A stretch of DNA of 64,000 nt, from the NCBI GenBank assembly GCA_015233405.1, contig JADFXT010000003.1, positions 118,591-182,590 on the forward strand, read 5' to 3'. Position 1 is the first letter of the stretch, and the number at the start of each line of letters is the position of its first letter. The translations under genes were made by a program, and so were the position numbers. The notes beneath the pieces were generated by a model. It was not told where the DNA came from. It worked only from the letters and a program-made list of their open reading frames with translations, and made no database searches. This document shows positions 8,687 through 57,712 of this stretch, one piece after another. Origin of the DNA: Candidatus Omnitrophota bacterium. Lineage in GTDB: Bacteria; Omnitrophota; Gorgyraeia; Zapsychrales; Zapsychraceae.

Positions 8687-9619
8687 CTAAAACTGAAATC
8701 CTGGCTGAAGCTTGTGTCCAACCGTAAAACTATGTGCATCCATAGGATTAGCGTTCTCAAGATGAACGCTCTTAATAAGAATCGCTTCCTTTGCGGTCTG
8801 AACAAGGATTCCGTTCTTTGAAATTTCGAGGACTTCGCCAGGTTTATGATTAGGGTTTAAAGCGGGGATAACTTCGGAAGTTAAAATCTTAAACAGCTTC
8901 TCTTGATAATAGGTATAGGCGCATGGCCAAGGCTGAAGCCCACGGACCTTATTATGAATGTCGACAGCGGAACTATTCCAGTCTATCTTGCCAAATTCCT
9001 TGGTGAGCTTCGGCGCCTTAGTCGCTTTGGTAGCATCCTGGGTCGTTAAGCGGACCATGCCATCATCAATGGCCTTTAAAGTTTCTTTAAGCTGCTCATT
9101 TCCTAAATCGATAAGTTTTTCTCGAAGGGTCACGGCATTATCTTCTGGATCAATGGGCATTGCTTTCTGTTTAATGATATCGCCGGCATCCAAAGAAATA
9201 TTTAGCCGAATGACTGTGACACCGGTCTGGGTTTCACCATTGATGAGCGCCCAGTTAATAGGAGCCGCGCCACGATATTTCGGTAATAGCGACGGATGGA
9301 CATTAAACGCGCCAAAATAAGGAAGTTCCAGAATTTCTTTGGGAAGAAGCTGGCCGTAAGAAACCACAATAAAAACATCCGGCTTAAAGGCCTTAAGCTC
9401 AGCAATAATCTCTTTATTTTCTTTTAAGGAAGCCGGCTGGAGAACTGCGATATGATGCGCTAGAGCAAGCTCTTTAATCGGCGAGACGACCATTTTTAAG
9501 CCACGGTCCTTAGGGCGGTCCGGCTGGGTCACGCAGGCAACAACTTTATGCCCGCCATCAAACAAACTCTTTAAGTGAGCTTCTGCAAAATCGTCGCTGC
9601 CAAAAAAAATAATGTTCAT
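8687..9619 (-). CDS. fmt: Methionyl-tRNA formyltransferase
   Basis: MNIIFFGSDDFA N-terminus, HPSLLPKYRGAAPI signature, C-terminal Fmt domain. The ORF-track start at 9634 adds 5 aa. Confidence 0.9.
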   Translation of the reverse strand: MNIIFFGSDDFAEAHLKSLFDGGHKVVACVTQPDRPKDRGLKMVVSPIKELALAHHIAVLQPASLKENKEIIAELKAFKPDVFIVVSYGQLLPKEILELPYFGAFNVHPSLLPKYRGAAPINWALINGETQTGVTVIRLNISLDAGDIIKQKAMPIDPEDNAVTLREKLIDLGNEQLKETLKAIDDGMVRLTTQDATKATKAPKLTKEFGKIDWNSSAVDIHNKVRGLQPWPCAYTYYQEKLFKILTSEVIPALNPNHKPGEVLEISKNGILVQTAKEAILIKSVHLENANPMDAHSFTVGHKLQPGFQF

Positions 9620-9674
9620 CTTAAAAGACTCCATGAAAAAAGGGCTGTTATTCTTTTCTTAACAGGCTCAATTT

Positions 9675-9956
9675 TTATTCATATTGACAAAGATATGCAG
9701 TATCTTGCGCGACTTTTACCTTAAACTTTGATTGTGCGGAAATTTCAAACGATGAACCCGCGCCATAATCTTCCCATTCGTCATATTCAGGCAAATACAC
9801 CGTCAATTCTCCATCGACAACCGTCATTATTTCTTTGGTCTCGGTATTAAATTCATACTCGCCCGGTTCCATGACCCCGACAGTTTTTTTAATCCCGCCC
9901 GAATTAATAACAAACGATTTCACTTTTCCATCAAAATACTCATTCACTTGAACCAT
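9675..9956 (-). CDS. ppnP: Pyrimidine/purine nucleoside phosphorylase PpnP (DUF1255)
   Basis: 93 aa, collinear with E. coli PpnP (NEYFDGKVKS...GVMEPGEYEF...YLCQY). Confidence 0.85.
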   Translation of the reverse strand: MVQVNEYFDGKVKSFVINSGGIKKTVGVMEPGEYEFNTETKEIMTVVDGELTVYLPEYDEWEDYGAGSSFEISAQSKFKVKVAQDTAYLCQYE

Positions 9957-10133
9957 GTTTATTCCTTTCTCTAATTCGTCTTATTTAAATTTTGTTTAAA
10001 TGATTCTAATATAACTCCTCAAAAGAGCAAATACATTTTACGGTATCATAATGTTTTATCTTTCGCGAGTTCAATACATTCTATTCACATAAAATGCTAT
10101 TTGCCCTCTTACAATTGAAATAAAAAATAATCC

Positions 10134-10454
10134 CTATCCTCTCACCATCACCAACATCATTTTAAACCGTTCGATGGCTTTAAGCGCGTGGGGCTTGTTC
10201 GCCGGCATGATGATCAAATCCCCGGCCTTGAGGCTGGACGGTTTCCCTTCGATCTTGACCTCAGCTTTTCCGTCGAAAACATAGACCATCGCATCAAATG
10301 GCGCGGTGTGCTCGCTTAAACATTGCCCCTTGTCGAAAGCAAAAAAAGATATCGTGCCCTTATCGTTACGGATAATTTCCTTGCTGACGATAGAATCATC
10401 CTGATAATCTACCAATTTGCCCATTTCCTGCGCCTGCCCGATGATATTGACCAT
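10134..10454 (-). CDS. Cupin domain protein
   Basis: Cupin motifs (HTAPFDAMVYVFDGKAEV... PANKPHAL). I prefer the start at MVNIIGQ (ATG 10454), which has a perfect AGGAGG SD. This start removes the overlap with kdpD. Confidence 0.7.
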   Translation of the reverse strand: MVNIIGQAQEMGKLVDYQDDSIVSKEIIRNDKGTISFFAFDKGQCLSEHTAPFDAMVYVFDGKAEVKIEGKPSSLKAGDLIIMPANKPHALKAIERFKMMLVMVRG

Positions 10455-10464
10455 GATTTCCTCC

Positions 10465-12381
10465 TTATTTCTCTCCGAGCGCGAGAGCGCCAAGTCTGCC
10501 GATAGTCTCGAGCAAATTTTGAATATCTTCCGTCAAAACGGAATCTTTTTTCATAAACTTGATTCCCAAGACAATTTGTGTCACATCTTCTTTCTTGACC
10601 GGTAAATAGACCGCTCGTGCCTCGCGTAGCGTCTTGGTCCCAGGACCAGCTGCTTGACCATTCTTATAAACCCAAGAAACAACAGCAAGCTCCTTATCAT
10701 CTAAAACAAACGCTGGGCTTAATTTTTGAAAAACGATTTCCCTTTGTTCCCCAAAAAAGAAAATGCCAGCCTCGCAAGGAATCAAGCTACGAACATGCCG
10801 GATAATAATTTTCGCTACCTCTTCCTTATCCTGGGCGACAAGAAGGTCTTTTGTCAAATCATACAAAGCAGCACTTTGTGCTTCACTATGGCGTAATTCC
10901 TTAAGTTGAAACCTTAAGATCGATGCCAAACTGCTTAAAAAAAATGCAATGGTCGCAAACACTGCGAAAGACAGAAAATACTGGACATCATTAACGGCAA
11001 ACGTGTAATACGGCTTGACGAATAAATAATCAAATACTGCGACGCTTAAAGCCGCAGAAAAAACAGCCGTCCGACGATTAAATCTTATGGAAACAAGAAC
11101 CACCGGCAAGAGCATGAGAAACAACATGTTCGTTTCGCTCAAATAATCCCTGAAAAGTTGTCCAACACCTGCTGCGACAACGACCCAAAGAAAGCCCCAA
11201 CTTAAGCCTTTCCATGGATTAAATAAAATTCTCGACGGGAGGAAGCTTTTTCGAAGTTCATGAGAGAACCAAAAGATATCCATTCCCTTTGTTTCTTTGA
11301 GCATCCGCCACATGAAAGCGAATCCCGTTCTGAAACGATGCGGCTTCCCGAGAATAATTTTAGTGATGTTGTGGTTCTCAGCGTAACGGACCACTTCTTT
11401 AGTAACATCATTTCCATGGACGACAACTACTTCCGCGCCTAAGGCTTTAGAAAGGTCCATGGCTTTCATCAGCCAACCTTTTTCCTGTTCCGTCATATTC
11501 TTATCGCGTTCAGTTTCGACGTGAAGTGCAGTCCATTTAGCGTTCAATTCTGAAGCAAAACGAAATGTTGAACGCACTAAATATTCTGCAGACGGGCTTG
11601 AAAATAAACCGACCAAAAGTTTATCCGTCACAGGCCACGGATCTTTAATGGCCTTGATCCTACGGTATTCGTCGACTTCCTTGTCGACCCGTGAGGTGAT
11701 ACAGCGTAGCGCCAATTCTCTTAACGCGGTCAGATTCCCCTGCGTGAAAAATCTTTCCACAGCGCGCTGGGCCATTTCTCCGATATAAACTTTGCCGTCC
11801 GCCAACCGTTTTAATAATTCTTTGGCAGGAAGGTCGATGATCTTCACCTCATCAGCGCTAAGGAAAATTCCGTCGGGAATGGTTTCCTTGACCTGAATAC
11901 CGGTAATACTAAAAACCAAGTCATTAACGCTTTCCAAGTGCTGGACATTTAAGGTCGAATAGACGTCAATCCCCGCTTTTAAAATCTCTTCCACATCCTG
12001 AAAACGCTTTTCATGACGAGAGCCAGGCGCATTGGTATGGGCCAACTCATCCATAACGACGAGCGAAGGCTTTTTCTGAAGAATTGCATCTAAATTGGCC
12101 TCGTAAAGTTCCAGGCCTTTATACGAAATCTTTTGCGAGGCGATCACCATTAACCCGGCGAGGAGAGCTTCTGTTTCTTTGCGCTTATGTGGTTCCACAT
12201 ACCCGACGATAATATCAACGCCTTCTTTTTTTTGATTCTGTGCCTCCTGAAGCATGGCATACGTCTTGCCTACACCAGGCGCCGCTCCAAAAAATATTGT
12301 CAGCTTGCCCTTTTTGCTTTCCGTTTCATTAGCAACTTTAAGCAAGGACTCCGGGTCTGGCCGTAAGAGTTCATCGTCCAT
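10465..12381 (-). CDS. kdpD: KdpD-like sensor lacking the histidine-kinase transmitter (KdpD-N + USP + 4 TM + GAF-like only)
   Basis: N-terminal KdpD domain with GAAPGVGKTYAML, a USP-like region, a 4-TM block, and a C-terminal ~130-aa GAF-like region. The ORF stops at 638 aa with no HisKA H-box or HATPase motifs. Confidence 0.8.
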   Translation of the reverse strand: MDDELLRPDPESLLKVANETESKKGKLTIFFGAAPGVGKTYAMLQEAQNQKKEGVDIIVGYVEPHKRKETEALLAGLMVIASQKISYKGLELYEANLDAILQKKPSLVVMDELAHTNAPGSRHEKRFQDVEEILKAGIDVYSTLNVQHLESVNDLVFSITGIQVKETIPDGIFLSADEVKIIDLPAKELLKRLADGKVYIGEMAQRAVERFFTQGNLTALRELALRCITSRVDKEVDEYRRIKAIKDPWPVTDKLLVGLFSSPSAEYLVRSTFRFASELNAKWTALHVETERDKNMTEQEKGWLMKAMDLSKALGAEVVVVHGNDVTKEVVRYAENHNITKIILGKPHRFRTGFAFMWRMLKETKGMDIFWFSHELRKSFLPSRILFNPWKGLSWGFLWVVVAAGVGQLFRDYLSETNMLFLMLLPVVLVSIRFNRRTAVFSAALSVAVFDYLFVKPYYTFAVNDVQYFLSFAVFATIAFFLSSLASILRFQLKELRHSEAQSAALYDLTKDLLVAQDKEEVAKIIIRHVRSLIPCEAGIFFFGEQREIVFQKLSPAFVLDDKELAVVSWVYKNGQAAGPGTKTLREARAVYLPVKKEDVTQIVLGIKFMKKDSVLTEDIQNLLETIGRLGALALGEK

Positions 12382-12958
12382 AATTTATTCCTTTTAAAGA
12401 ATCCAGCGCCATATTAAGCTTAAGCACATTAATACGAGGAGAACCTAAAAATCCAAATTGCTGGCCTTGAGCACAAGAGCTAATCAATTCCAAAACCTCC
12501 TTGACTGCAAATTTTCTTGCGAGGGCAACTCGCGGTGCTTGAAGCTGTGCTGATTCTAAACTAATATCAGGGTCCAACCCGCTTGCCGACATAAGAACCA
12601 AATCTCCGGGGATTTCTTTGTCCGCCAAGGACGGATTGTTCCGTTGGAGTACTGCGATCCGCTCTATCACCGCACTTTTAAATTTAGCGCTCGTGGGCCC
12701 AAAATTGCTAGCACCGGAAGCGGATGCGTCGTAATCCACCACCGATGGGCGCCCTTGGAAATAAAAATCCTTGGTAAATTTTTGACCGATCAAAACAGAT
12801 CCCTTGGATTTCCCGTCAACGATTAAGATACTCCCATTAGCTTCAAAAGGAAAGAGTATTTGCCCGACCAGCGTCATGAAGAACGGATAGATGATTCCGG
12901 TCAAGATAGAAAACACAAATAATATTTTTAACGACTTCCATAAACTTTTAAGCATCAT
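12371..12958 (-). CDS. kdpC: K+-transporting ATPase subunit C
   Basis: N-terminal TM plus the SGASNFGPTS motif, positioned after kdpB. I prefer the ATG at 12958 (GAGGAG SD) over the TTG at 12970. Confidence 0.85.
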   Translation of the reverse strand: MMLKSLWKSLKILFVFSILTGIIYPFFMTLVGQILFPFEANGSILIVDGKSKGSVLIGQKFTKDFYFQGRPSVVDYDASASGASNFGPTSAKFKSAVIERIAVLQRNNPSLADKEIPGDLVLMSASGLDPDISLESAQLQAPRVALARKFAVKEVLELISSCAQGQQFGFLGSPRINVLKLNMALDSLKGINYGR

Positions 12959-12966
12959 AAAACTCC

Positions 12967-15003
12967 TCAAACTAAATGTAGGAAATTAAGAACAAGATCA
13001 ATGATCTTGATCCCGATAAATGGCAAAATGATCCCGCCAACGCCATAAATAAGCAAATTCCGATATAAAAGTGCCGTCGGAGAAACCGGTTTATAGCGCA
13101 CCCCGCGTAGCGCCAGTGGAATCAACGCCGGAATAATGAGCGCGTTAAAAATGACTGCGGCCAAAACCGCGCTTTTAGCATTGGACAGCCGCATAATATT
13201 GAGAATCTGCAGCGCCGGATATTTCGCGATAAAGATCGCTGGAATAATGGCAAAATATTTCGCCACGTCATTGGCGATACTAAACGTGGTCAAGGCCCCG
13301 CGCGTGATCAAAATCTGTTTTCCGATCTCGACGATATCCAGAAGCTTTGTCGGATTGGAATCCAGGTCCACCATGTTCGCCGCTTCGCGCGCGACCTGCG
13401 TTCCGGCGTTCATGGCGACCGCCACATCCGCCTGCGCCAAGGCCGGCGCATCATTGGTCCCGTCGCCAATCATCGCGACCAAATAACCTTGCGCCTGATA
13501 TTTACGGATTAAATCAAGTTTCTTGTCCGGCTTGGCCTGGGCAAAAAAATCATCCAACCCTGCCTCGGCCGCTATGGAAGCTGCGGTCAACTGATTGTCG
13601 CCGGTAATCATGACCGACTGAATTCCCATCTTTCTTAGCTGCGAGATCCGTTCATAAATTCCTTTTTTAATAATATCCTTCAGTTGAATGACACCCAAGA
13701 CCTTACCATTCTCGGCGACGACCAAAGGAGTCCCGCCTTCAAAAGAAATATCCTCAATAATCTTATAAACCTCGGGCGAAACCGCACCTCCGTTATTTTT
13801 GACAAACTGGCCAATACCGTCTTCCGCGCCTTTACGAATGCGCCGGCTGCCGATATCAACTCCACTCATTCGGCTCTGGGCGCTAAACGGAATGAAAACT
13901 GATCCTTCCGGCGGTAAAATATCTTTTCCTTCAATCTTTAAACGTTCTTTGGCTAAAACAATGACACTCCGTCCTTCGGGAGTTTCGTCCGCGAGCGATG
14001 AATATATCGCCGCCTCTATCAACTCTTTTTCCGAAATCCCGTCGGCGGCAATAAACTGCGTCGCCATGCGGTTACCTAACGTGAGTGTCCCTGTTTTATC
14101 CAACAAGACCACATCCACATCGCCAGAAGCCTCGACGGCCCGGCCGCTTAACGCAATCACGTTCATCTGGAGTAACCTATCCATGCCTGCAATGCCAATG
14201 GCTGGCAAAAGCCCGCCGATGGTCGTCGGGATCAAACACACCAAAAGCGAGACCAGAACAACAACGGAAACATCCACCTGAATATAATTGGCGAAAAAGA
14301 CAAACGTCACGACGACAGCCAAGAAGATAACAGTAAGCCCTATGATTAAAATTTCCAACGCGACTTCATTGGGAGTTTTCTTTCTAACGGCACCCTCGAC
14401 CATCGCGATCATCTGGTCGATAAATGTCTTACCGGGCTCCGCCGTAATCCGTACTTTGAGTTTACCGGATAAAACTTTTGTCCCGGCTGTGACGCCCGAA
14501 CGGTCTCCGCCCGCCTCACGAATGACCGGCGCGGATTCACCTGTGACTGCGGACTCGTTAATGAGCGCTGTCCCTTCTATAATCTCGCCATCACCGGGAA
14601 TAGTATCGTTGTCCTCAAGAATAATGCAATCGCCCTTCTTAAGCTCAAGTCCCGTGATAACCTCAACTTTACCATCCGTTGTCAATCGTTTAGCTAAAGC
14701 TGTTTCCCGAGAACGTTTCAAACTCTCCGCCTGGGCTTTTCCGCGGCCCTCGGCAATCGCCTCAGAAAAATTCGCAAAAAGGACCGTAAACCACAACCAG
14801 ACTGATATTTGAATATCAAATCCCGCGGCTTGGCCGTGAAAACAGTCTAAGATCGCAATCCCCGTCGTTAAAATAGCACCCAATCCCACGAGGAACATGA
14901 CCGGATTTTTATAAAGCGAACGCGGATCCAATTTTTTAAACGAAACAACGATGGAATCCAGGACAATTTTTTTCTGCCATAATGATTTTTGTGTCTTCGA
15001 CAT
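12967..15003 (-). CDS. kdpB: K+-transporting P-type ATPase subunit B
   Basis: DKTGTLT phosphorylation motif, [21 protein letters not shown], 678 aa. Confidence 0.95.
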
Positions 15004-15014
15004 AATTGTTTCTC

Positions 15015-16718
15015 CTAAAAGACCTTTCCGGCCATCATTTGAAGATGTTCAAGCACAGGCCCAATCGTAAACGGCGGGAAAAAAGTCAGTGCCCCAATAA
15101 CAATGACCGTCGCACAAAGAATACAAATAAAAATCAGACTAGCCGTCGGAAGTGTAGCCCTGTTCTGAGGCGAAATCTTTTTGTGTGCCAGACTTCCTGC
15201 AATGACCAATGCCGGAATGATGGTCGCGAACCGCCCAACTAACATCGCCAAAGAAATGGTCAGATTATAAAACGGCGTGTTGGCATTTAATCCCGCAAAT
15301 GCCGATCCATTATTCCCAACCCCCGAGGCGTAGGCATAGAAAATTTCTGTAAAACCGTGCGGCCCGAAATTATTTAAACCCGTTAATCCGATGGGTAACG
15401 AAATAGCGCACGCCGCCAAGATTTTTAAGGTCACGCTCGGTAACACAATGGCCAAAACTGTCATGATCATCTCGGAAGATCCAAGTTTTTTCCCATAAAG
15501 CTCCGGCGTGCGGCCAATCATTAGCCCGATAATAAAAAGAGCCAGGACCGCATAGAACATCATGCCAATCAAACCGACACCGACGCCGCCGAAAATAACT
15601 TCACCTATTGTAATATTAAATAACGCGACCAAACCCGTCACGGGAAGCAAACTGTCGTGCATGGCATTGACGCTTCCGTTGGAAGTGGCAGAAGTGGCGA
15701 CTTCCCAATACACCGACGGAACGACACCGAATCGGGTTTCTTTGCCTTCCATATTCATACCCTGATGAACGCCAACACTTTGAAGAATGGGGCTTCCCTT
15801 CAACTCAAAAAATAACGCAATACTTAAACCCGCAACCAAAAGAATCAACATCGCAGTAAAAACCGCCCAGCCTTCTTTGCGTTTATTCAAGAGCTCACCG
15901 AGTAAAATAGGGAACGCAAACGGAATAAGCAGGATCGCCATCAGCTCAAGAAAATTCGTTAACGGAGTCGGGTTCTCAAAAGGATGCGCTGAATTGACGT
16001 TAAAAAATCCTCCTCCGTTGGACCCAAGCTGTTTAATAGCGATCTGCGAGGCAGCTGGCCCGACGGCTAAAACCTGTTTCTGGCCTTCCAGCGTTTGGAC
16101 ATTCACATAGGGATGAAGAGTTTGGACAACTCCTTGCGACATCAGTACGACCGCAAAAATAATCGATAAGGGTAAAAGTATATAAAGAATACTTCGCGTG
16201 AGATCCGCCCAAAAGTTTCCAATAGTTTCGCTAGATTGGCGGGAAAAACCTCTTAAGAACGCCACACATGCCGCCATCCCGGCCGCGGCAGAGACAAAAT
16301 TCTGGACGGTCAATCCCACCATCTGAGTTAAATAACTCATAGTGGCTTCTCCACTATAGGATTGCCAATTCGTATTAGTTACGAATGAAACAGCTGTATT
16401 GATGGCGAGATGCCAAGGAACCGCGGATAATTGGGCCGGATTTAAAGGAAGCTTATCCTGAAAAACCTGAATCAAAAAAAGGACGATAAAGCCCCACAAA
16501 TTAAGGAGAAGAAAATCTTTTGTGTAAACCTTCCAAGACATCTCCTCGGCAGGATCTATTCCGCATATTTTATAAAGGAAGGATTCGAGCGGTTTTATCA
16601 AGCAGCTTAAGAACGTTTTCTGCCCGCTGTAGACCAATTTAAAGAACTTTCCCAGCGGAATCGCTGCAAGCGTCAAAAGGGTCAAAGAAAGAAACAATTC
16701 AAAGAAATTGTTAGCCAT
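15015..16718 (-). CDS. kdpA: K+-transporting ATPase subunit A
   Basis: 567-aa polytopic protein collinear with KdpA, and the first gene of kdpABC. Confidence 0.9.
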
Positions 16719-16804
16719 AAAAACCGTCCATTCACCTATCCCCTGCCTTTTAATTTTGCGTGCAGGAACGTTTGATCTCCTTTATAAAAACCATAAAGGC
16801 AGAT

Positions 16805-16836
16805 AAAACAAAAACCAGAGAATGGGATCTCTGGTT
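16805..16836 (-). terminator. Intrinsic terminator (expression platform of the kdp riboswitch)
   Basis: The minus strand reads AACCAGAGA-TCCCAT-TCTCTGGTT followed by TTTGTTTT. It lies directly 3' of the aptamer and 86 nt 5' of the kdpA ATG. Confidence 0.8.
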
Positions 16837-16841
16837 ATATT

Positions 16842-16966
16842 CCCTCATTCGAAGCTGACGGAGTTAGCTGTCGGGTTCGGGCTTGAGCGGCCCTAATCCT
16901 CATCGGATATTCACCCCAAGGTCTTTTTGACCGTGGTCTTGGTTTCCCCGCTTTCGTTTAAGCATC
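16842..16966 (-). promoter_or_regulatory. c-di-AMP riboswitch (ydaO/kimA class) in the kdpA leader
   Basis: The minus strand reads GAUGCUUAAACGAAAGCGGGGAAACCAAGACCACGGUCAAAAAGACCUUGGGGUGAAUAUCCGAUGAGGAUUAGGGCCGCUCAAGCCCGAACCCGACAGCUAACUCCGUCAGCUUCGAAUGAGGG. It contains the conserved blocks GCGGGGA-ACC-A, UGGGGUGAAU, UAGGG and CCCGAACCCGACAGCUAAC-UC-GU-AGC that I remember from ydaO-class aptamers. Confidence 0.8.
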
Positions 16967-17016
16967 TCCTTAAAACTAAAAAATGCCTCAAGCGAAATTA
17001 AGCGTATTTAAAGTTC

Positions 17017-17045
17017 AATAATAATACGAATTTTATTTTTGTCAA
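17017..17045 (-). promoter_or_regulatory. Sigma70-type promoter of the kdp leader
   Basis: The minus strand reads TTGACA-N16-TATTAT (or N17-ATTATT), about 50 nt upstream of the aptamer. Confidence 0.55.
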
Positions 17046-17111
17046 TACCAAAACTGCGAAAATTTATTTTAGAGCTAATTTTCCCGTCAACATTAAAATT
17101 CAAACGGGCTT

Positions 17112-18956
17112 TCATGGATCAACATTTATCGTGATCACAAGGTCACGCTTCTTTTTAAAATCACCCAATACAGACTTGACCAATTTCAAATTATCTTTCG
17201 CTGACTTGGCTTTAAGCATAATCGTAAAGCGGTACTTGTCCCGCAGCTTCGGAACCACGTCGGGATGCGGGTCGGAAATTTCAACCGACTGAGGCGCCTT
17301 GGCCTTAATGGCCTCGCACAATAATTTCACCTGCTCGAGGACAAATTCCTCATTCCTTCCGCGGACGACCAACAAAATAAGATGTTTGGCCGGCGGGAAT
17401 CCCAGCTCTTTTCTAAAAGATAACTCTTTACGATAAAACCCTTCAAAATTCATCTTCTCGATGGCTTTAAGGACATAATCGTTACGCATCATCGTCTGGA
17501 CGAGCAATTTTTCCTTCGCCATTAATCTGAGATTGATGAGCAAAGAAAACACTTTGTTCGCCGAGCGGAAATCAAAACGGTTCAGCTGGGCGTCAAAATC
17601 CACGACGACAATCACATCAAACGCCATATCCTGCTGAACCTTAAGGATCGCTTGTGTGGCGATGATAATATTAGCTTCGACGGGAAACGTTTTTGAGTCG
17701 CGATCATAGAGCCCGACCTTGGCCTGGGGATAATACCGCGCAACATCGCTTTGCAGTTTCTCAATGCCGCCGCCCATGGATTGTAAATATGCCTTCTGGC
17801 ACGACGGACAAACCTTCGGCAATTCCTTAGTTTCTCCGCAATGGCGGCAGACCAGCTTCTGCTGAGCATACATAAAAGTCAAGTTGACATCGCAACGGCT
17901 GCAGCGCATCGTAAACCCGCACGCACAGCGGGTCATGGTCGTAAAACCTTTACGGTTCATCAGCAAGACCACCCGTTTTTTCTGTTCCAGACACTGATAA
18001 AGAACATTCTGAAGCGGAAAAGACAAAAACGTGGATTTGCGGGATTTATAATTGCTCATGTCGATAACCTGAAACCCGCAATATTTCTCCGGCACAAATG
18101 TGACCTTCTCCCATTTATGTGCTGTTGCCTCTTTATAGGTCTCGACCGACGGAGCCGAGCTGATCAAGATCACCTTTGCGCCTTCCAATTGAGAACGAAG
18201 CTCAGCGATCTTTTGCATCCGAAAGAACGGCGACTGTTCTTCTTTATAAACGGTATTTTCCTCTTCAAAGATCGCGATCAATCCCAAATTCGGCGCCGGC
18301 GCGAAGATCGCAGTCAATGTTCCCAAAATAATGGAAGGAGCTCCCTGACGGATCTCGAGCCAAACCTCCAATTCTTTTTTGGGGGTCAACTTTTTATCCA
18401 AAACTAGGATCTTCGACGAGCAATCCTTTTCCAATTTCTGCTTGGCCTGCTCGATCGCCTCCAAAGACGGCATCAAGATAATAATGCTCTGTCCGCGAGC
18501 AAGGATTTCCTTAGCTTTTTCCATCACAAAAACCCATGACTGCCTTAAAGTCTCATCCTGTACAAGACAAAAAGATGAACCGGGCCGCTCAGGAACAGGA
18601 ACAACGACGGGAAGATCAACCGCCTGCCCACGGCGTAATGCATTCGGCAAATAGGAAAAAATCGCCTCTCCTAAAGAGCAGCCATAATACGCACTTAAGG
18701 CCTTGGCGAGGTTAAAAGCATTGTTGTCGACGGATGAGGTTGTCGTATCTAAAATTTCCAAAATAGGATTAAGACGGGGAAACGCACTTTTTTGTTTAAA
18801 TCCCACAACAACTCCGACGGTTTCCCGACGATTGAAAAGGACTTTCACGCGCTGGCCAACGGCAATTTTTTCCTGAAACTCTGTGCCGATGGCATAATCG
18901 AACGGGCCGTCCAAAGGAAGATCGACGACAATTAAAGCAATCTTGGGGGGATTCAT
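17112..18956 (-). CDS. priA: Primosomal protein N' (PriA) homolog with degenerate helicase/ATPase motifs
   Basis: Collinear with PriA: N-terminal DNA-binding domain, Cys-rich Zn region CACG...CSRC...CRHC...CPSC, and C-terminal domain. The Walker A position reads QDETLRQS and the DEEH position reads FEEEN. See findings. Confidence 0.75.
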   Translation of the reverse strand: MNPPKIALIVVDLPLDGPFDYAIGTEFQEKIAVGQRVKVLFNRRETVGVVVGFKQKSAFPRLNPILEILDTTTSSVDNNAFNLAKALSAYYGCSLGEAIFSYLPNALRRGQAVDLPVVVPVPERPGSSFCLVQDETLRQSWVFVMEKAKEILARGQSIIILMPSLEAIEQAKQKLEKDCSSKILVLDKKLTPKKELEVWLEIRQGAPSIILGTLTAIFAPAPNLGLIAIFEEENTVYKEEQSPFFRMQKIAELRSQLEGAKVILISSAPSVETYKEATAHKWEKVTFVPEKYCGFQVIDMSNYKSRKSTFLSFPLQNVLYQCLEQKKRVVLLMNRKGFTTMTRCACGFTMRCSRCDVNLTFMYAQQKLVCRHCGETKELPKVCPSCQKAYLQSMGGGIEKLQSDVARYYPQAKVGLYDRDSKTFPVEANIIIATQAILKVQQDMAFDVIVVVDFDAQLNRFDFRSANKVFSLLINLRLMAKEKLLVQTMMRNDYVLKAIEKMNFEGFYRKELSFRKELGFPPAKHLILLVVRGRNEEFVLEQVKLLCEAIKAKAPQSVEISDPHPDVVPKLRDKYRFTIMLKAKSAKDNLKLVKSVLGDFKKKRDLVITINVDP

Positions 18957-49225: not shown

Positions 49226-50251
49226 CTACTTTTTATCTGTGATTTCGGCAAAGCAGAAAACTTTGTTGCGACCATATTTTTTGGCTCGGTATAAAGCAAA
49301 ATCCGCTTTATCAACCAAATCATTGATGTTCTGGCCATCGGAAGGATAATTCGAAACACCAATACTCACGGTGGTCTGAACAAGCGTGTCATAAGCTTTA
49401 ATGGCGGATTCTTCAACGGATTTACGAATACGTTCCGCGACATACTGCGCGCCTAAATAATCCGTATCGGGAAGGACAATACAAAATTCTTCTCCGCCGT
49501 AACGCCCCGGGATATCAATTTCACGGATGCTATCTTTGATAATATTACCGATTTCCCTTAACACTTGATCGCCGGTCAAATGGCCATGCGTATCATTAAC
49601 AGCTTTAAAGAAATCCACATCCATCATCAAGAAAGACAATTTGATATTACGAGCCTTAGACCGTTTGACTTCTTCCTGAAAACGCTCCATGACATACCGG
49701 CGCGTATAAACATCCGTTAAACTATCCATGATCGCGACTTGCTCGATTTCTTCATAAAGCGCCACGCGCCTTAAGGCCAGAACAAACTGATTGCCAAGAA
49801 TCATGACCTTTTCTTTATCCTCCTCGGCAATTCCTTCTAAAACCAGATATCCTATCAATCTCTTTTTTTCTTGCAGAATAAAAACAAACTGCTCCTTTAA
49901 GGCCTGGAATTCTTTTTCTCCCTCTAATCCTGCCTTAACAAGCTGACAGGATTTAAAACGGACATGCTGTGCAAGCTGCTTTTTGAAAATATCAAACGCC
50001 TCTTTTTCTGTTAGACTTTTGGTGATCTCACGGGTGATTTCATATAAGGTAAAAATCTTGATCGCTTCTTCTTCAAATTTCATTTTTTCCTGATAACGCG
50101 CTTCTTTCTTCTCGCGAAATTCCTGCAAATCTTTCTTATGGGCTAAGAGATCTTTCTCGAGTTCTTCTTCAAAAGAAACCGCAGACCTTTTCGCACAATA
50201 AAGGACAAAGGCGGCATAAGCTGCAACGATGATTAACGAAACAACGATCAT
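49226..50251 (-). CDS. Diguanylate cyclase (TM + coiled coil + GAF-like + GGDEF), I-site present
   Basis: REID-IPGRY-GGEEF (RxxD five residues before GGEEF), N-terminal TM. Confidence 0.85.
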   Translation of the reverse strand: MIVVSLIIVAAYAAFVLYCAKRSAVSFEEELEKDLLAHKKDLQEFREKKEARYQEKMKFEEEAIKIFTLYEITREITKSLTEKEAFDIFKKQLAQHVRFKSCQLVKAGLEGEKEFQALKEQFVFILQEKKRLIGYLVLEGIAEEDKEKVMILGNQFVLALRRVALYEEIEQVAIMDSLTDVYTRRYVMERFQEEVKRSKARNIKLSFLMMDVDFFKAVNDTHGHLTGDQVLREIGNIIKDSIREIDIPGRYGGEEFCIVLPDTDYLGAQYVAERIRKSVEESAIKAYDTLVQTTVSIGVSNYPSDGQNINDLVDKADFALYRAKKYGRNKVFCFAEITDKK

Positions 50252-50269: not shown

Positions 50270-51565
50270 TCAAGCACAACAGACGCGATTACGCCCGGCT
50301 TTCTTTGCGTTATAAAGCGCCAGGTCGGCTTGATGAATAATCTCGTCTTTCATTTGGGCGTCTTCGGGAAACGAGGCGACTCCAATAGAAACCGTCACCC
50401 CGGTTTTCGTACGCCGCAAAAGAATACTTTGTTCTTCAATCTTTTTCCGAAATTCCTCAGCCAATTTAACAGCTTTTTCTTTAGGGCAATCGGGAATAAG
50501 AACACAAAATTCCTCTCCCCCATAACGACACACCAAACTCCCTGGCTCGTTAAAAAAATCTTTTAATAACAACCCCACCGTCCTTAAAACAATATCCCCG
50601 GCCATGTGGCCGTATTTGTCGTTATAATCTTTAAAATGATCCAGGTCCATCATCAAGAAAGACAACTCACCTTTTCCTCGAATATGCCGGCTGATTTCTT
50701 CCGGCAGACGCTCTTGAAGATAGCGCCTTAAATATAAATTTGTCAAACTGTCATGGATCGCCAGCTGCTCGACGTGTTCATACAGCTGGGCATTTTCAAT
50801 AGCGACCGCGCCTAAGTCACTGATGGTCGTCAAGAATCTTAAATCTTCCGTCGTAAAACAATGCTCGGCGGGACAATCTACCCGTAAAATCCCCAGCGCC
50901 TTGTGGCCGACCATTAAAGGCGTGCTGATCAAAGAGCGCACCGGGCGTGTTTGTTCCTGCGCGATTTTATCCGCGTCAAAACGATAATCTGTTTTTGCAT
51001 CATCAATTAGTAAAGGCTGCATGGTTTTCACAAGCCACCGATCAAAGATGTCCCCCTTTTTTTCTTTGATATTGACCTCCATCCGGCCTTTGTGAGATGA
51101 AGAAATTCCCAAGTCCCCTGTTTTGGAATGGAACAGGTACAGGATAATCGTGGAATCTTTGCCGCCAAAAAGTTTATTGACTTCCGAGGAAAGCGTTTTG
51201 GACGTATCTTCCGTCGAGAGGCACATGCCTAATTTTTCGGTCAACCCTTTGAGTTCGGAGAAGCTGACAATTTTTTCCCGAAAAGAATCAATCGCGATTT
51301 CTTCTTTGGAGATTTCCAGCTCCAGAAGATTTTTCTGTTCTGAAAGATCCTGCAGCTGGAGTTCGACATCGGCTTTTTTCTGCTGAAGATGATTTTGGAG
51401 CGGGATCAAATACGCCATGATCCCGACAAACGCTAATCCTAAAAATATGAAAAATTTAACAGCAAAGAACGTGGCAATAAGAAAGAAGACGACCAGCGGC
51501 AGAATAAGCGCGGCGATTAATAAACTGCGGGATTTAGATGATAGTATTTTCGGTTTCTCGGTCAA
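50270..51565 (-). CDS. Diguanylate cyclase (2 TM + coiled coil + GAF-like + GGDEF), no RxxD I-site
   Basis: RYGGEEF preceded by NEPGSLVC, with no RxxD. The GAF-like middle domain is present. Confidence 0.85.
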   Translation of the reverse strand: MTEKPKILSSKSRSLLIAALILPLVVFFLIATFFAVKFFIFLGLAFVGIMAYLIPLQNHLQQKKADVELQLQDLSEQKNLLELEISKEEIAIDSFREKIVSFSELKGLTEKLGMCLSTEDTSKTLSSEVNKLFGGKDSTIILYLFHSKTGDLGISSSHKGRMEVNIKEKKGDIFDRWLVKTMQPLLIDDAKTDYRFDADKIAQEQTRPVRSLISTPLMVGHKALGILRVDCPAEHCFTTEDLRFLTTISDLGAVAIENAQLYEHVEQLAIHDSLTNLYLRRYLQERLPEEISRHIRGKGELSFLMMDLDHFKDYNDKYGHMAGDIVLRTVGLLLKDFFNEPGSLVCRYGGEEFCVLIPDCPKEKAVKLAEEFRKKIEEQSILLRRTKTGVTVSIGVASFPEDAQMKDEIIHQADLALYNAKKAGRNRVCCA

Positions 51566-56768: not shown

Positions 56769-57347
56769 TTATGACCTCACACTTCTTTGAACTATTTCGA
56801 ACAAACAATCATTAAGCACTTCCCTGTGGCCGTTGTGCCTTTTCGCAATAAGTATCGGCTTTGCCTTGGAATTATCAAACAACATCCAGGAATCAAATAA
56901 CGGCTCGTACAGGGTAAAGAAATTATTGACGCCGCGGGAAAACCGCCGACGGACATCTTCGGCAGGGACATAATGCCCGCCTTCCTGAACTCTTTCTTTA
57001 ATACGGGCTATCGCCAATTCCGCGCTTGGAAGCCACAGAAAAAAAAGATGCGGCGCGTAACCTCTCCTCTTTAACTCAGTCAACAAGCCCACATAAGACT
57101 TGCCGGACAATGTCGTTTCAAACGCGAAATCAACACCACGCTTAGCGTATTCATCAATTTGCTGAAGCACGAGTTTACCGGCTTTAATGGCGGCAGCGCG
57201 AGGCCCAAAGGGGGCTAATCCTTGCGCTATCAGATCGGCATTTACAAAATTCGGGCAATTCACATATTCAGGCAGAAACATTCGGGCAAACGTCGTCTTA
57301 CCCGATCCGTTCGGCCCCGCAATAATGTAAACTGCCTTATTTTTCAT
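56769..57347 (-). CDS. Zeta-toxin-like / COG4185-type P-loop ATPase
   Basis: Walker A IIAGPNGSGKTT, 192 aa, zeta/AAA_33-like layout. Confidence 0.7.
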   Translation of the reverse strand: MKNKAVYIIAGPNGSGKTTFARMFLPEYVNCPNFVNADLIAQGLAPFGPRAAAIKAGKLVLQQIDEYAKRGVDFAFETTLSGKSYVGLLTELKRRGYAPHLFFLWLPSAELAIARIKERVQEGGHYVPAEDVRRRFSRGVNNFFTLYEPLFDSWMLFDNSKAKPILIAKRHNGHREVLNDCLFEIVQRSVRS

Positions 57348-57607
57348 ATTGTCCCAATTAGGTTTTTCATCCGTTGTTTATCGCCCGCTATCTCAACAGC
57401 AAGGGTATGTACAATTTGCACCCACCCTTTGGAAAGTTCAGGGTCACGCCTACGCATATCTTTAATATATCCATCCGGCTGGACAGAATCTGTTAAAGCC
57501 GCTACCACGTCAACGATAACAAGCCACCATTCTTTATTATGGATGGTCTTGCGAATTTCCTGTTTTCTAAATATCGCAATTTTGGTTGCGGTTATTTCTT
57601 GGTTCAT
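57344..57607 (-). CDS. Bro-N-like small DNA-binding protein
   Basis: IAIFRKQEIRKTIHNKEWWLVIVDVVAALTDS fits the Bro-N pattern (IR..., WW/WF, DV..AL). ATGA overlap with the downstream ATPase. Confidence 0.55.
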   Translation of the reverse strand: MNQEITATKIAIFRKQEIRKTIHNKEWWLVIVDVVAALTDSVQPDGYIKDMRRRDPELSKGWVQIVHTLAVEIAGDKQRMKNLIGTI

Positions 57608-57712
57608 ATTGTCTTACCTTCGACTCATAACACCCTTGGCCAATTACGCCTACAGCCCATTGAAACACCGCTGCTTATAGAAATCCATCGAAAACGTAGT
57701 GTAGTATGGAAA

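Follow-up and report, generated by a model that had tools for sequence, protein, structure and literature searches.

A predicted c-di-AMP riboswitch of the ydaO class preceding kdpABC and a kinase-less kdpD-like gene in a Candidatus Omnitrophota bacterium

Background

How is a potassium-uptake operon regulated when its KdpD-like protein lacks histidine-kinase domains and no kdpE-type gene lies nearby? This question is raised by a locus of Candidatus Omnitrophota bacterium (assembly GCA_015233405.1), located in a stretch of 64,000 nucleotides of contig JADFXT010000003.1 (positions 118,591 to 182,590 of the forward strand). The whole stretch is hereafter referred to as the window, and coordinates are given in it, with (-) denoting the minus strand. 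The genes priA (17112-18956) and kdpA (15015-16718) are separated here by a spacer of 393 bp, the minus strand of which carries a promoter, an aptamer and a terminator. The analysis reported below indicates that this spacer very probably encodes a transcription-terminating OFF riboswitch of the ydaO class, responsive to cyclic di-adenosine monophosphate (c-di-AMP), which controls kdpABC together with a kinase-less kdpD-like gene.

The ydaO class was reportedly placed in several phyla, in association with potassium transporters, by Block et al. in 2010 and Nelson et al. in 2013. The type members of the Rfam family RF00379 are ydaO (kimA) and ktrAB of Bacillus subtilis, riboswitches through which c-di-AMP controls potassium-uptake genes by means of transcription termination (PMC7288161, PMC9960051). 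In the kdp leader of Bacillus thuringiensis, intrinsic termination is promoted when c-di-AMP is bound by the riboswitch, the KdpD protein is truncated and there is no kdpE, an arrangement found in 12 species and described as restricted to the Bacillales (PMC6488665). The N-terminal domain of KdpD has serine-kinase activity and inhibits KdpB through phosphorylation of the serine in the TGES motif, KdpD forms lacking the histidine kinase predominate where KdpE is missing, and in some Bacillota a riboswitch brings the whole Kdp system under c-di-AMP control (Silberberg et al. 2024, PMC11018627). A literature search found no paper describing c-di-AMP riboswitches in Omnitrophota.

Results and discussion

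The RF00379 aptamer upstream of kdpA

When the whole window was searched against Rfam 15, the sole match was to RF00379, at 16974-16837 (-), with a score of 73.1 bits (gathering score 38, E 4.8e-15) and untruncated coverage of model positions 1-134 of 134. The core of this c-di-AMP riboswitch aptamer, from P1 to P1, extends over 16964-16853 and measures about 112 nt. A preliminary description of the stretch, made from its letters, had recognised a ydaO-class element from a set of conserved sequence blocks and had suggested a covariance-model search; every block quoted there is present, and the search is strongly positive. The junction blocks GGGGUGAAU, UAGGG, CCCGAACCCG and CAGCUAAC are all identical to the RF00379 consensus. 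The pseudo-two-fold helices of the class, an inability to form which would have counted against the assignment, can form, as 22 of the 26 consensus pairs in the parsed RF00379 alignment are canonical or G-U; the four that do not form belong to the outermost position of P1 (U-U) and to the optional P2 hairpin (three pairs).

The P2 hairpin is absent from the window aptamer and P3 has a 15-nt insertion, features which, along with the downstream gene and the phylum, distinguish it from ydaO and ktrAB of B. subtilis, members of the same aptamer family. The crystallised ydaO aptamer (4QLM/4QLN, PMC5393176) has the same junction sequences as the window and likewise no P2 hairpin.

Terminator and promoter

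Directly 3' of the aptamer lies an intrinsic terminator (16803-16836 (-)), comprising a 9-bp stem AACCAGAGA/UCUCUGGUU (16836-16828 / 16821-16813), a 6-nt loop and the U-tract UUUGUUUUAU (16812-16803). In a simple scan of the DNA it reads AACCAGAGA-TCCCAT-TCTCTGGTT at 16836-16813, followed by TTTGTTTTAT. The hairpin has a folding energy of -13.3 kcal/mol (z -6.0), a stability not reached by any of 200 dinucleotide shuffles. The start codon of kdpA is located about 85 nt past the U-tract.

Upstream of the aptamer, a sigma-70-type promoter was found at 17018-17045 (-), with the -35 element TTGACA (17045-17040), a 16-nt spacer and the -10 element TATTAT (17023-17018), giving 11 of 12 consensus matches in a simple consensus scan. 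Promoter consensus matches alone are not significant (3 found versus 1.4 +/- 1.1 in shuffles); the equivalent place in two sister loci, L081 and L082, is occupied by TTGACA-N17-TAATGT. Transcription is predicted from the position of these elements to start near 17011. A second promoter-like site, TTGACG-N18-TAAATT at 17090-17061, has only 9 of 12 matches and was not adopted as the main promoter. Both the minus-strand TTGACA-N16-TATTAT promoter and the 9-bp-stem hairpin with its U-tract had been named in the preliminary description, and both are upheld by the present analysis, the promoter also by its counterparts in the sister loci.

The kdp operon and its KdpD-like protein

The three genes that follow the terminator were identified by NCBIfam equivalog models as consecutive kdpA, kdpB and kdpC genes, each above its cut-off, which confirms that kdpABC lies downstream of the element, as had been proposed from the sequence. 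The first gene of the operon, kdpA (15015-16718 (-)), encodes 567 aa and matches TIGR00680 with 708.5 bits (cut-off 387.7); kdpB (12967-15003 (-), 678 aa) matches TIGR01497 with 990.9 bits and carries TGES at residues 154-157 and DKTGT at residues 302-306; kdpC (12371-12970 (-), 199 aa) matches NF001454 with 213.2 bits (cut-off 178).

The next gene (10465-12381 (-)) overlaps kdpC and encodes a KdpD-like protein of 638 aa, which covers positions 1-642 of the 895-position KdpD model. Its Pfam domains are PF02702 (KdpD N-terminal), PF00582 (Usp; a weak match of 27.5 bits) and PF13493 (DUF4118), and neither HisKA nor HATPase_c was found in it by Pfam. No response regulator was found beside the kdp operon or among the other window open reading frames (ORFs) scanned. 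The architecture devoid of kinase domains is shared by homologues of the KdpD-like protein from L081, L082 and the P0004 locus, which measure 637-643 aa. The window protein thus resembles the KdpD forms discussed by Silberberg et al. in that the N-terminal and Usp domains are kept, the DHp/CA part is missing and no KdpE is encoded nearby, and the window KdpB keeps the TGES serine.

The locus shares several features with kdpFABC of B. thuringiensis BMB171 (Wang et al. 2019, PMC6488665), namely a kdp 5' leader in which an RF00379 aptamer precedes an intrinsic terminator, OFF logic (predicted in the window), a KdpD without histidine-kinase domains and the lack of a kdpE nearby. The window differs in belonging to an Omnitrophota metagenome-assembled genome (MAG) with lipopolysaccharide (LPS)-core genes and in having no kdpF; it encodes LPS heptosyltransferases, GmhB and polysaccharide-export proteins, which fits a diderm organism. 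The KdpD remnant is also longer, since the 638-aa protein of the window keeps Usp, the transmembrane DUF4118 and the region following it, whereas the B. thuringiensis protein has 365 aa and is N-terminal only.

A shared expression platform in related leaders

The KdpA of the window is 100% identical to a protein assigned to a Candidatus Omnitrophica bacterium MAG. The nearest other KdpA proteins are those of two further Omnitrophica MAGs (76%), one JGI (Joint Genome Institute) contig (73%) and one Logan contig (65%). Upstream of kdpA in L082 (an Omnitrophica MAG, KdpA 76%) and in L083-85 (65%), RF00379 matches of 61-71 bits are followed by the same terminator stem. In the other sister Omnitrophica MAG (L081 3880-4000, KdpA 76%), about 125 nt of aptamer are deleted and no RF00379 match is found; the TTGACA-N17-TAATGT promoter leads straight into AACTCCGTCAGC, the tail and an intact terminator.

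Metagenomes were scanned with the pattern CAGCTAACYYCGTNAG-N(8-30)-ACCAGAG-N(3-10)-CTCTGGTTTT, which yielded 44 loci; the 19 that were tested were all RF00379 matches, with scores of 62-92 bits. Together with the window, L082 and L083 these loci make up 47 units with 40 unique leaders, so that 46 related leaders have the same aptamer class and the same ACCAGAG/CUCUGGU terminator as the window. The terminator stem is identical in L081, L082, L083 and the 44 metagenomic loci. About 17 of the 47 units precede kdpA, and others precede genes for TrkH, for a KimA-like protein of the amino-acid-permease family and for a P-type cation ATPase of about 1075 aa with an N-terminal PTS_EIIA_2 domain. No riboswitch core motif, strict or loose, was found in the 80 closest GTDB-representative KdpA loci (50-61% identity), a search by which divergent aptamers could be missed; within this set the riboswitch therefore does not track the KdpA phylogeny. 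Given the shared platform and the Omnitrophota names of most named homologues of the EIIA-fused ATPase encoded behind some of its copies, the window unit is best seen as one copy of a lineage-wide, sequence-conserved riboswitch cassette.

A tail with two possible partners

The 3' tail of the aptamer, GAAUGAGGGAAU (16839-16850 (-)), is the candidate switching strand. It contains UGAG (16847-16844), which could pair with CUCA (16884-16887 (-)) in the P6 loop, a pseudoknot partner assigned by homology; the loop, CGCUCAA, has 7 nt and is closed by the P6 stem 16893-16890 / 16882-16879. It also contains AGGGAAU (16845-16839) or, in another register, GAAUG-A-GGG (16850-16842), which could pair with an antiterminator 3' strand (16817-16827 (-)) made up of residues of the terminator loop and of the four nucleotides that begin the 3' arm of the hairpin. 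This strand reads AUUCUCU (16823-16817) in the register common to the family and UCCCAUUC (16827-16820) in a register specific to the window.

The pseudoknot site can form 3-8 bp in most relatives, and CUC[A/G]–[U]GAG is possible in most of 39 leaders; as both strands are nearly invariant, there is no covariation to assess. The candidate antiterminator, in which the tail pairs with the loop's 3' half and four nucleotides at the start of the terminator 3' arm, has 7-9 pairs in all of the 39 leaders. Pairs were counted with a register-aware script over 39 unique leaders, one of the 40 repeating the tail/loop pair of another. A MAFFT alignment of the expression platforms was not used for column pair counts, because spacers ranging over 0-3 nt place the tails out of register. 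Position 7 of the helix is paired in 39/39 leaders (U-A 22, C-G 13, U-G 4), position 8 shows G-C in 21, A-U in 3, A-C in 14 and G-G in 1, position 9 shows C-G in 16, U-A in 9 and U-G in 2 and is unpaired in 12, and position 10 is essentially never paired (1/21), counts which are inflated by kinship among the leaders. Several tail/loop classes are spread over different downstream genes, which argues for more than one independent tail/loop change. Cognate tail/loop duplexes have a mean of -8.74 kcal/mol versus -7.99 kcal/mol for shuffled combinations, and only 2 of 2000 permutations are as good. The covarying nucleotides were free Ns in the search pattern, and hence the search did not impose the covariation.

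The antiterminator shares bases of its 5' strand with the pseudoknot tail and bases of its 3' strand with the 3' arm of the terminator, which makes pseudoknot, antiterminator and terminator mutually exclusive. The conservation of the terminator sequence can be attributed to the same geometry, as a likeness to the pseudoknot loop (CUCU) is required of the 3' arm and one to the tail (AGAG) of the 5' arm.

Proposed mechanism

Transcription is proposed to start at the TTGACA/TATTAT promoter, after which the aptamer of about 112 nt would fold and leave the tail GAAUGAGGGAAU with two possible partners. When c-di-AMP, as a signal of potassium sufficiency, is bound, the tail would be held in the pseudoknot with the P6 loop; with the tail sequestered, the AACCAGAGA/UCUCUGGUU hairpin and the U-tract would form, RNA polymerase would stop about 85 nt before kdpA and kdp would be OFF. 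When c-di-AMP is lacking, the free tail would base-pair with the loop of the terminator and the start of its 3' arm, and this antiterminator would hold back the terminator hairpin for long enough that polymerase could read through into kdpA. A further layer of control, post-translational inhibition of KdpB, is probably exerted by the KdpD-like protein via its N-terminal serine-kinase domain. The OFF-switch attenuator architecture proposed in the preliminary description is supported by its match to the B. thuringiensis kdp riboswitch (PMC6488665) and by the covarying antiterminator, which competes with both the terminator and the pseudoknot.

Evidence against the OFF riboswitch and alternative explanations

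Several observations weigh against this mechanism. The pseudoknot of the window would have only 4 bp (CUCA 16887-16884 with UGAG 16847-16844), whereas the penultimate hairpin of 4QLM has a loop, ACUCCUUCG, that is complementary over 8 nt to the 3' tail, CGAAGGAG, as read from the published sequence, in a pseudoknot described as stable (PMC5393176). The window antiterminator is weak: the 7-bp helix AGGGAAU/AUUCUCU has -4.2 kcal/mol and the helix of the register specific to the window, with 8 bp and one bulge, -5.1 kcal/mol, versus -13.3 kcal/mol for the terminator, while the family means are -6.6 (antiterminator) and -12.4 kcal/mol (terminator). It thus belongs to the weaker third of the family, and antitermination in the window may be inefficient. 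As the terminator always wins at equilibrium, read-through would have to be kinetic. Two usually conserved positions deviate from the Rfam consensus, with A for G at 16945 and C for A at 16857; the latter recurs in 13 of the 40 related leaders, including the best scorer (92 bits), and the former is also seen in several (uncounted). Minimum-free-energy folding misses the consensus fold both for the aptamer alone (z -1.05) and for the whole leader, a failure which is expected for a pseudoknotted, multi-junction and ligand-stabilised fold and was accordingly set aside as a test. Finally, no match to the diadenylate cyclase domains DisA_N/CdaA was found among the window ORFs scanned, the window being 64 kb of the 186-kb contig.

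The weakness of the antiterminator relative to the terminator and the two substituted positions would also suit a leader in which the aptamer no longer switches and the terminator serves as a constitutive or otherwise regulated attenuator, heading to the aptamer-deleted state of L081. The arrangement of that locus, with AACTCCGTCAGC, tail and terminator directly behind the promoter and without an RF00379 match, indicates that the lineage tolerates loss of the aptamer. A degenerate aptamer of this kind is nevertheless unlikely in the window, where RF00379 scores 73 bits, well in excess of its gathering score, the junction blocks are all intact and the substitution at 16857 is one that recurs in relatives scoring up to 92 bits. 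Still less is to be said for control chiefly via translation or Rho in place of the intrinsic terminator. Some actinobacterial ydaO-class riboswitches have no canonical terminator and seem to work at the level of translation (PMC9960051); the window, however, has a canonical hairpin and U-tract directly after the aptamer, conserved in 47 leaders, the kdpA start is about 85 nt past the U-tract, and the aptamer tail was not seen to pair with the kdpA ribosome-binding site in the sequence or in the whole-leader fold.

The deviation of two conserved positions from the consensus could, in addition, be read as a sign that the aptamer responds to some other ligand than c-di-AMP or that the logic is reversed, with the ligand turning expression ON. 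One downstream class in the relatives bears the JGI name of a potassium/sodium efflux ATPase, for which an OFF response would be unexpected. RF00379 is not known to include variants with a different ligand specificity, which speaks against another ligand. The sharing of tail bases by the pseudoknot and the antiterminator would give OFF rather than reversed logic, and most of the downstream genes serve potassium uptake (kdp, TrkH, KimA-like), as fits repression by c-di-AMP. Another ligand or an ON response is the least probable of the alternatives considered, and the c-di-AMP-dependent OFF riboswitch is the interpretation adopted below.

Small ORFs between the terminator and kdpA

A 32-aa ORF (16848-16750, MREYNQRSHSLVFVLSAFMVFIKEIKRSCTQN) spans the terminator and contains a hydrophobic run of 12 residues encoded in part by the U-tract. 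It was rejected as a kdpF candidate, having no Shine-Dalgarno sequence, no Pfam match and no counterpart in L081, L082 or L083. A screen for hydrophobic ORFs found no conserved KdpF-like ORF in the window, L082, L083, L092 or L099, while the same screen, as a positive control, detected a clear KdpF (M.VIYWIGG...YLLIALLKPEIF) between the riboswitch and kdpA in nine distant loci (L088, L096, L100, L107, L110, L117, L118, L119 and L123). The absence of a kdpF mini-ORF, stated in the preliminary description, thus holds.

In eight of these riboswitch-kdp loci (L088, L096, L100, L110, L117, L118, L119 and L123), two conserved small hydrophobic peptides are encoded between the terminator and kdpA. 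One is the KdpF peptide (...YLLIALLKPEIF), 29-30 aa long; the other lies upstream of it and has a 26-aa core, MDILFV.IIIGLA..SF.FI.LCSKV, which is extended N-terminally to 33-35 aa in L117 and L123. Shine-Dalgarno-like sequences precede both peptides in several of the eight loci. L107 has the KdpF peptide and is without the second one.

In the window, a six-codon ORF (16711-16731 (-); ATG GAC GGT TTT TAT GGC TAA), preceded by GGGGAUAGGUGA, overlaps the kdpA start out of frame. It could be translationally coupled to kdpA or be due to chance.

A possible riboswitch regulon in Omnitrophota

Genes for the EIIA-fused ATPase follow the riboswitch unit at L093 1688-3865 (-) and at L086, L090, L094, L098, L101, L105, L106, L111, L120, L125 and L129. 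Homologues of this protein that have a source name are nearly always from Omnitrophica/Omnitrophota, with a few from Phycisphaerae, and are labelled by JGI as potassium/sodium efflux ATPases; if the protein is truly an efflux pump, its repression by c-di-AMP would be unexpected. Other genes found behind the unit encode DUF475/TerC, Mrp/Nuo-type antiporter subunit and MotA/ExbB-family proteins (L089/L119, L097/L103 and L115/L127), the last of which is not an obvious c-di-AMP target, and at L122 243-1274 (-) the unit precedes a stand-alone DUF4118-HisKA-HATPase protein.

It may be proposed, with an even balance of confidence and doubt, that Omnitrophota, and perhaps some Phycisphaerae, possess a sizeable c-di-AMP riboswitch regulon on one conserved platform, in which the terminator arms mimic the loop and the tail and the tail is subject to three-way competition. 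Such a regulon would comprise kdp, the EIIA-fused P-type cation ATPase, TrkH, KimA-like permeases, an Mrp-type antiporter subunit, TerC/DUF475, ExbB-like proteins and a KdpD-type kinase. According to the same proposal, the terminator 3' arm (CUCU...) would imitate the pseudoknot loop and the 5' arm (..AGAG) the tail. If true, this mimicry would explain the conservation of the terminator across unrelated downstream genes, and riboswitch control of kdp paired with a kinase-less KdpD would lie well outside the Bacillales, contrary to the distribution described in 2019.

Other features of the window

The genes priA and fmt are often close neighbours with def between them. In the window, the region from priA to fmt (8687-18956) contains, between these two genes, the kdp operon, a cupin gene (10134-10493) and a PpnP-like gene (9675-9956), and no def was seen there. 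The PriA ORF matches models only from about residue 145 onward. Two adjacent genes for GGDEF-domain diguanylate cyclases (49226-50251 (-) and 50270-51565 (-)) suggest that the organism uses cyclic di-guanosine monophosphate (c-di-GMP), as well as presumably c-di-AMP. Among the 56 non-overlapping window ORFs of at least 110 aa, 55 are on the minus strand; the only plus-strand ORF (57222-57680) has no family match.

Conclusion

The known logic of the B. thuringiensis kdp leader appears, as judged from the sequence, to recur in another phylum, where kdpF is missing and more of KdpD remains. For genome annotation, the locus is a routine and correct riboswitch call, the new points being a phylum beyond the Bacillales, the pairing with a kinase-less KdpD and the three-way expression platform. 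The 47 leaders with a common terminator constitute a natural covariation data set for the choice of the ydaO tail between pseudoknot and antiterminator. Control of Kdp by c-di-AMP, through a riboswitch and a kinase-less KdpD, the latter likely post-translational, would thus not be peculiar to the Bacillus cereus group, being found also in an uncultured diderm phylum, and implies that c-di-AMP signalling governs potassium homeostasis in Omnitrophota.

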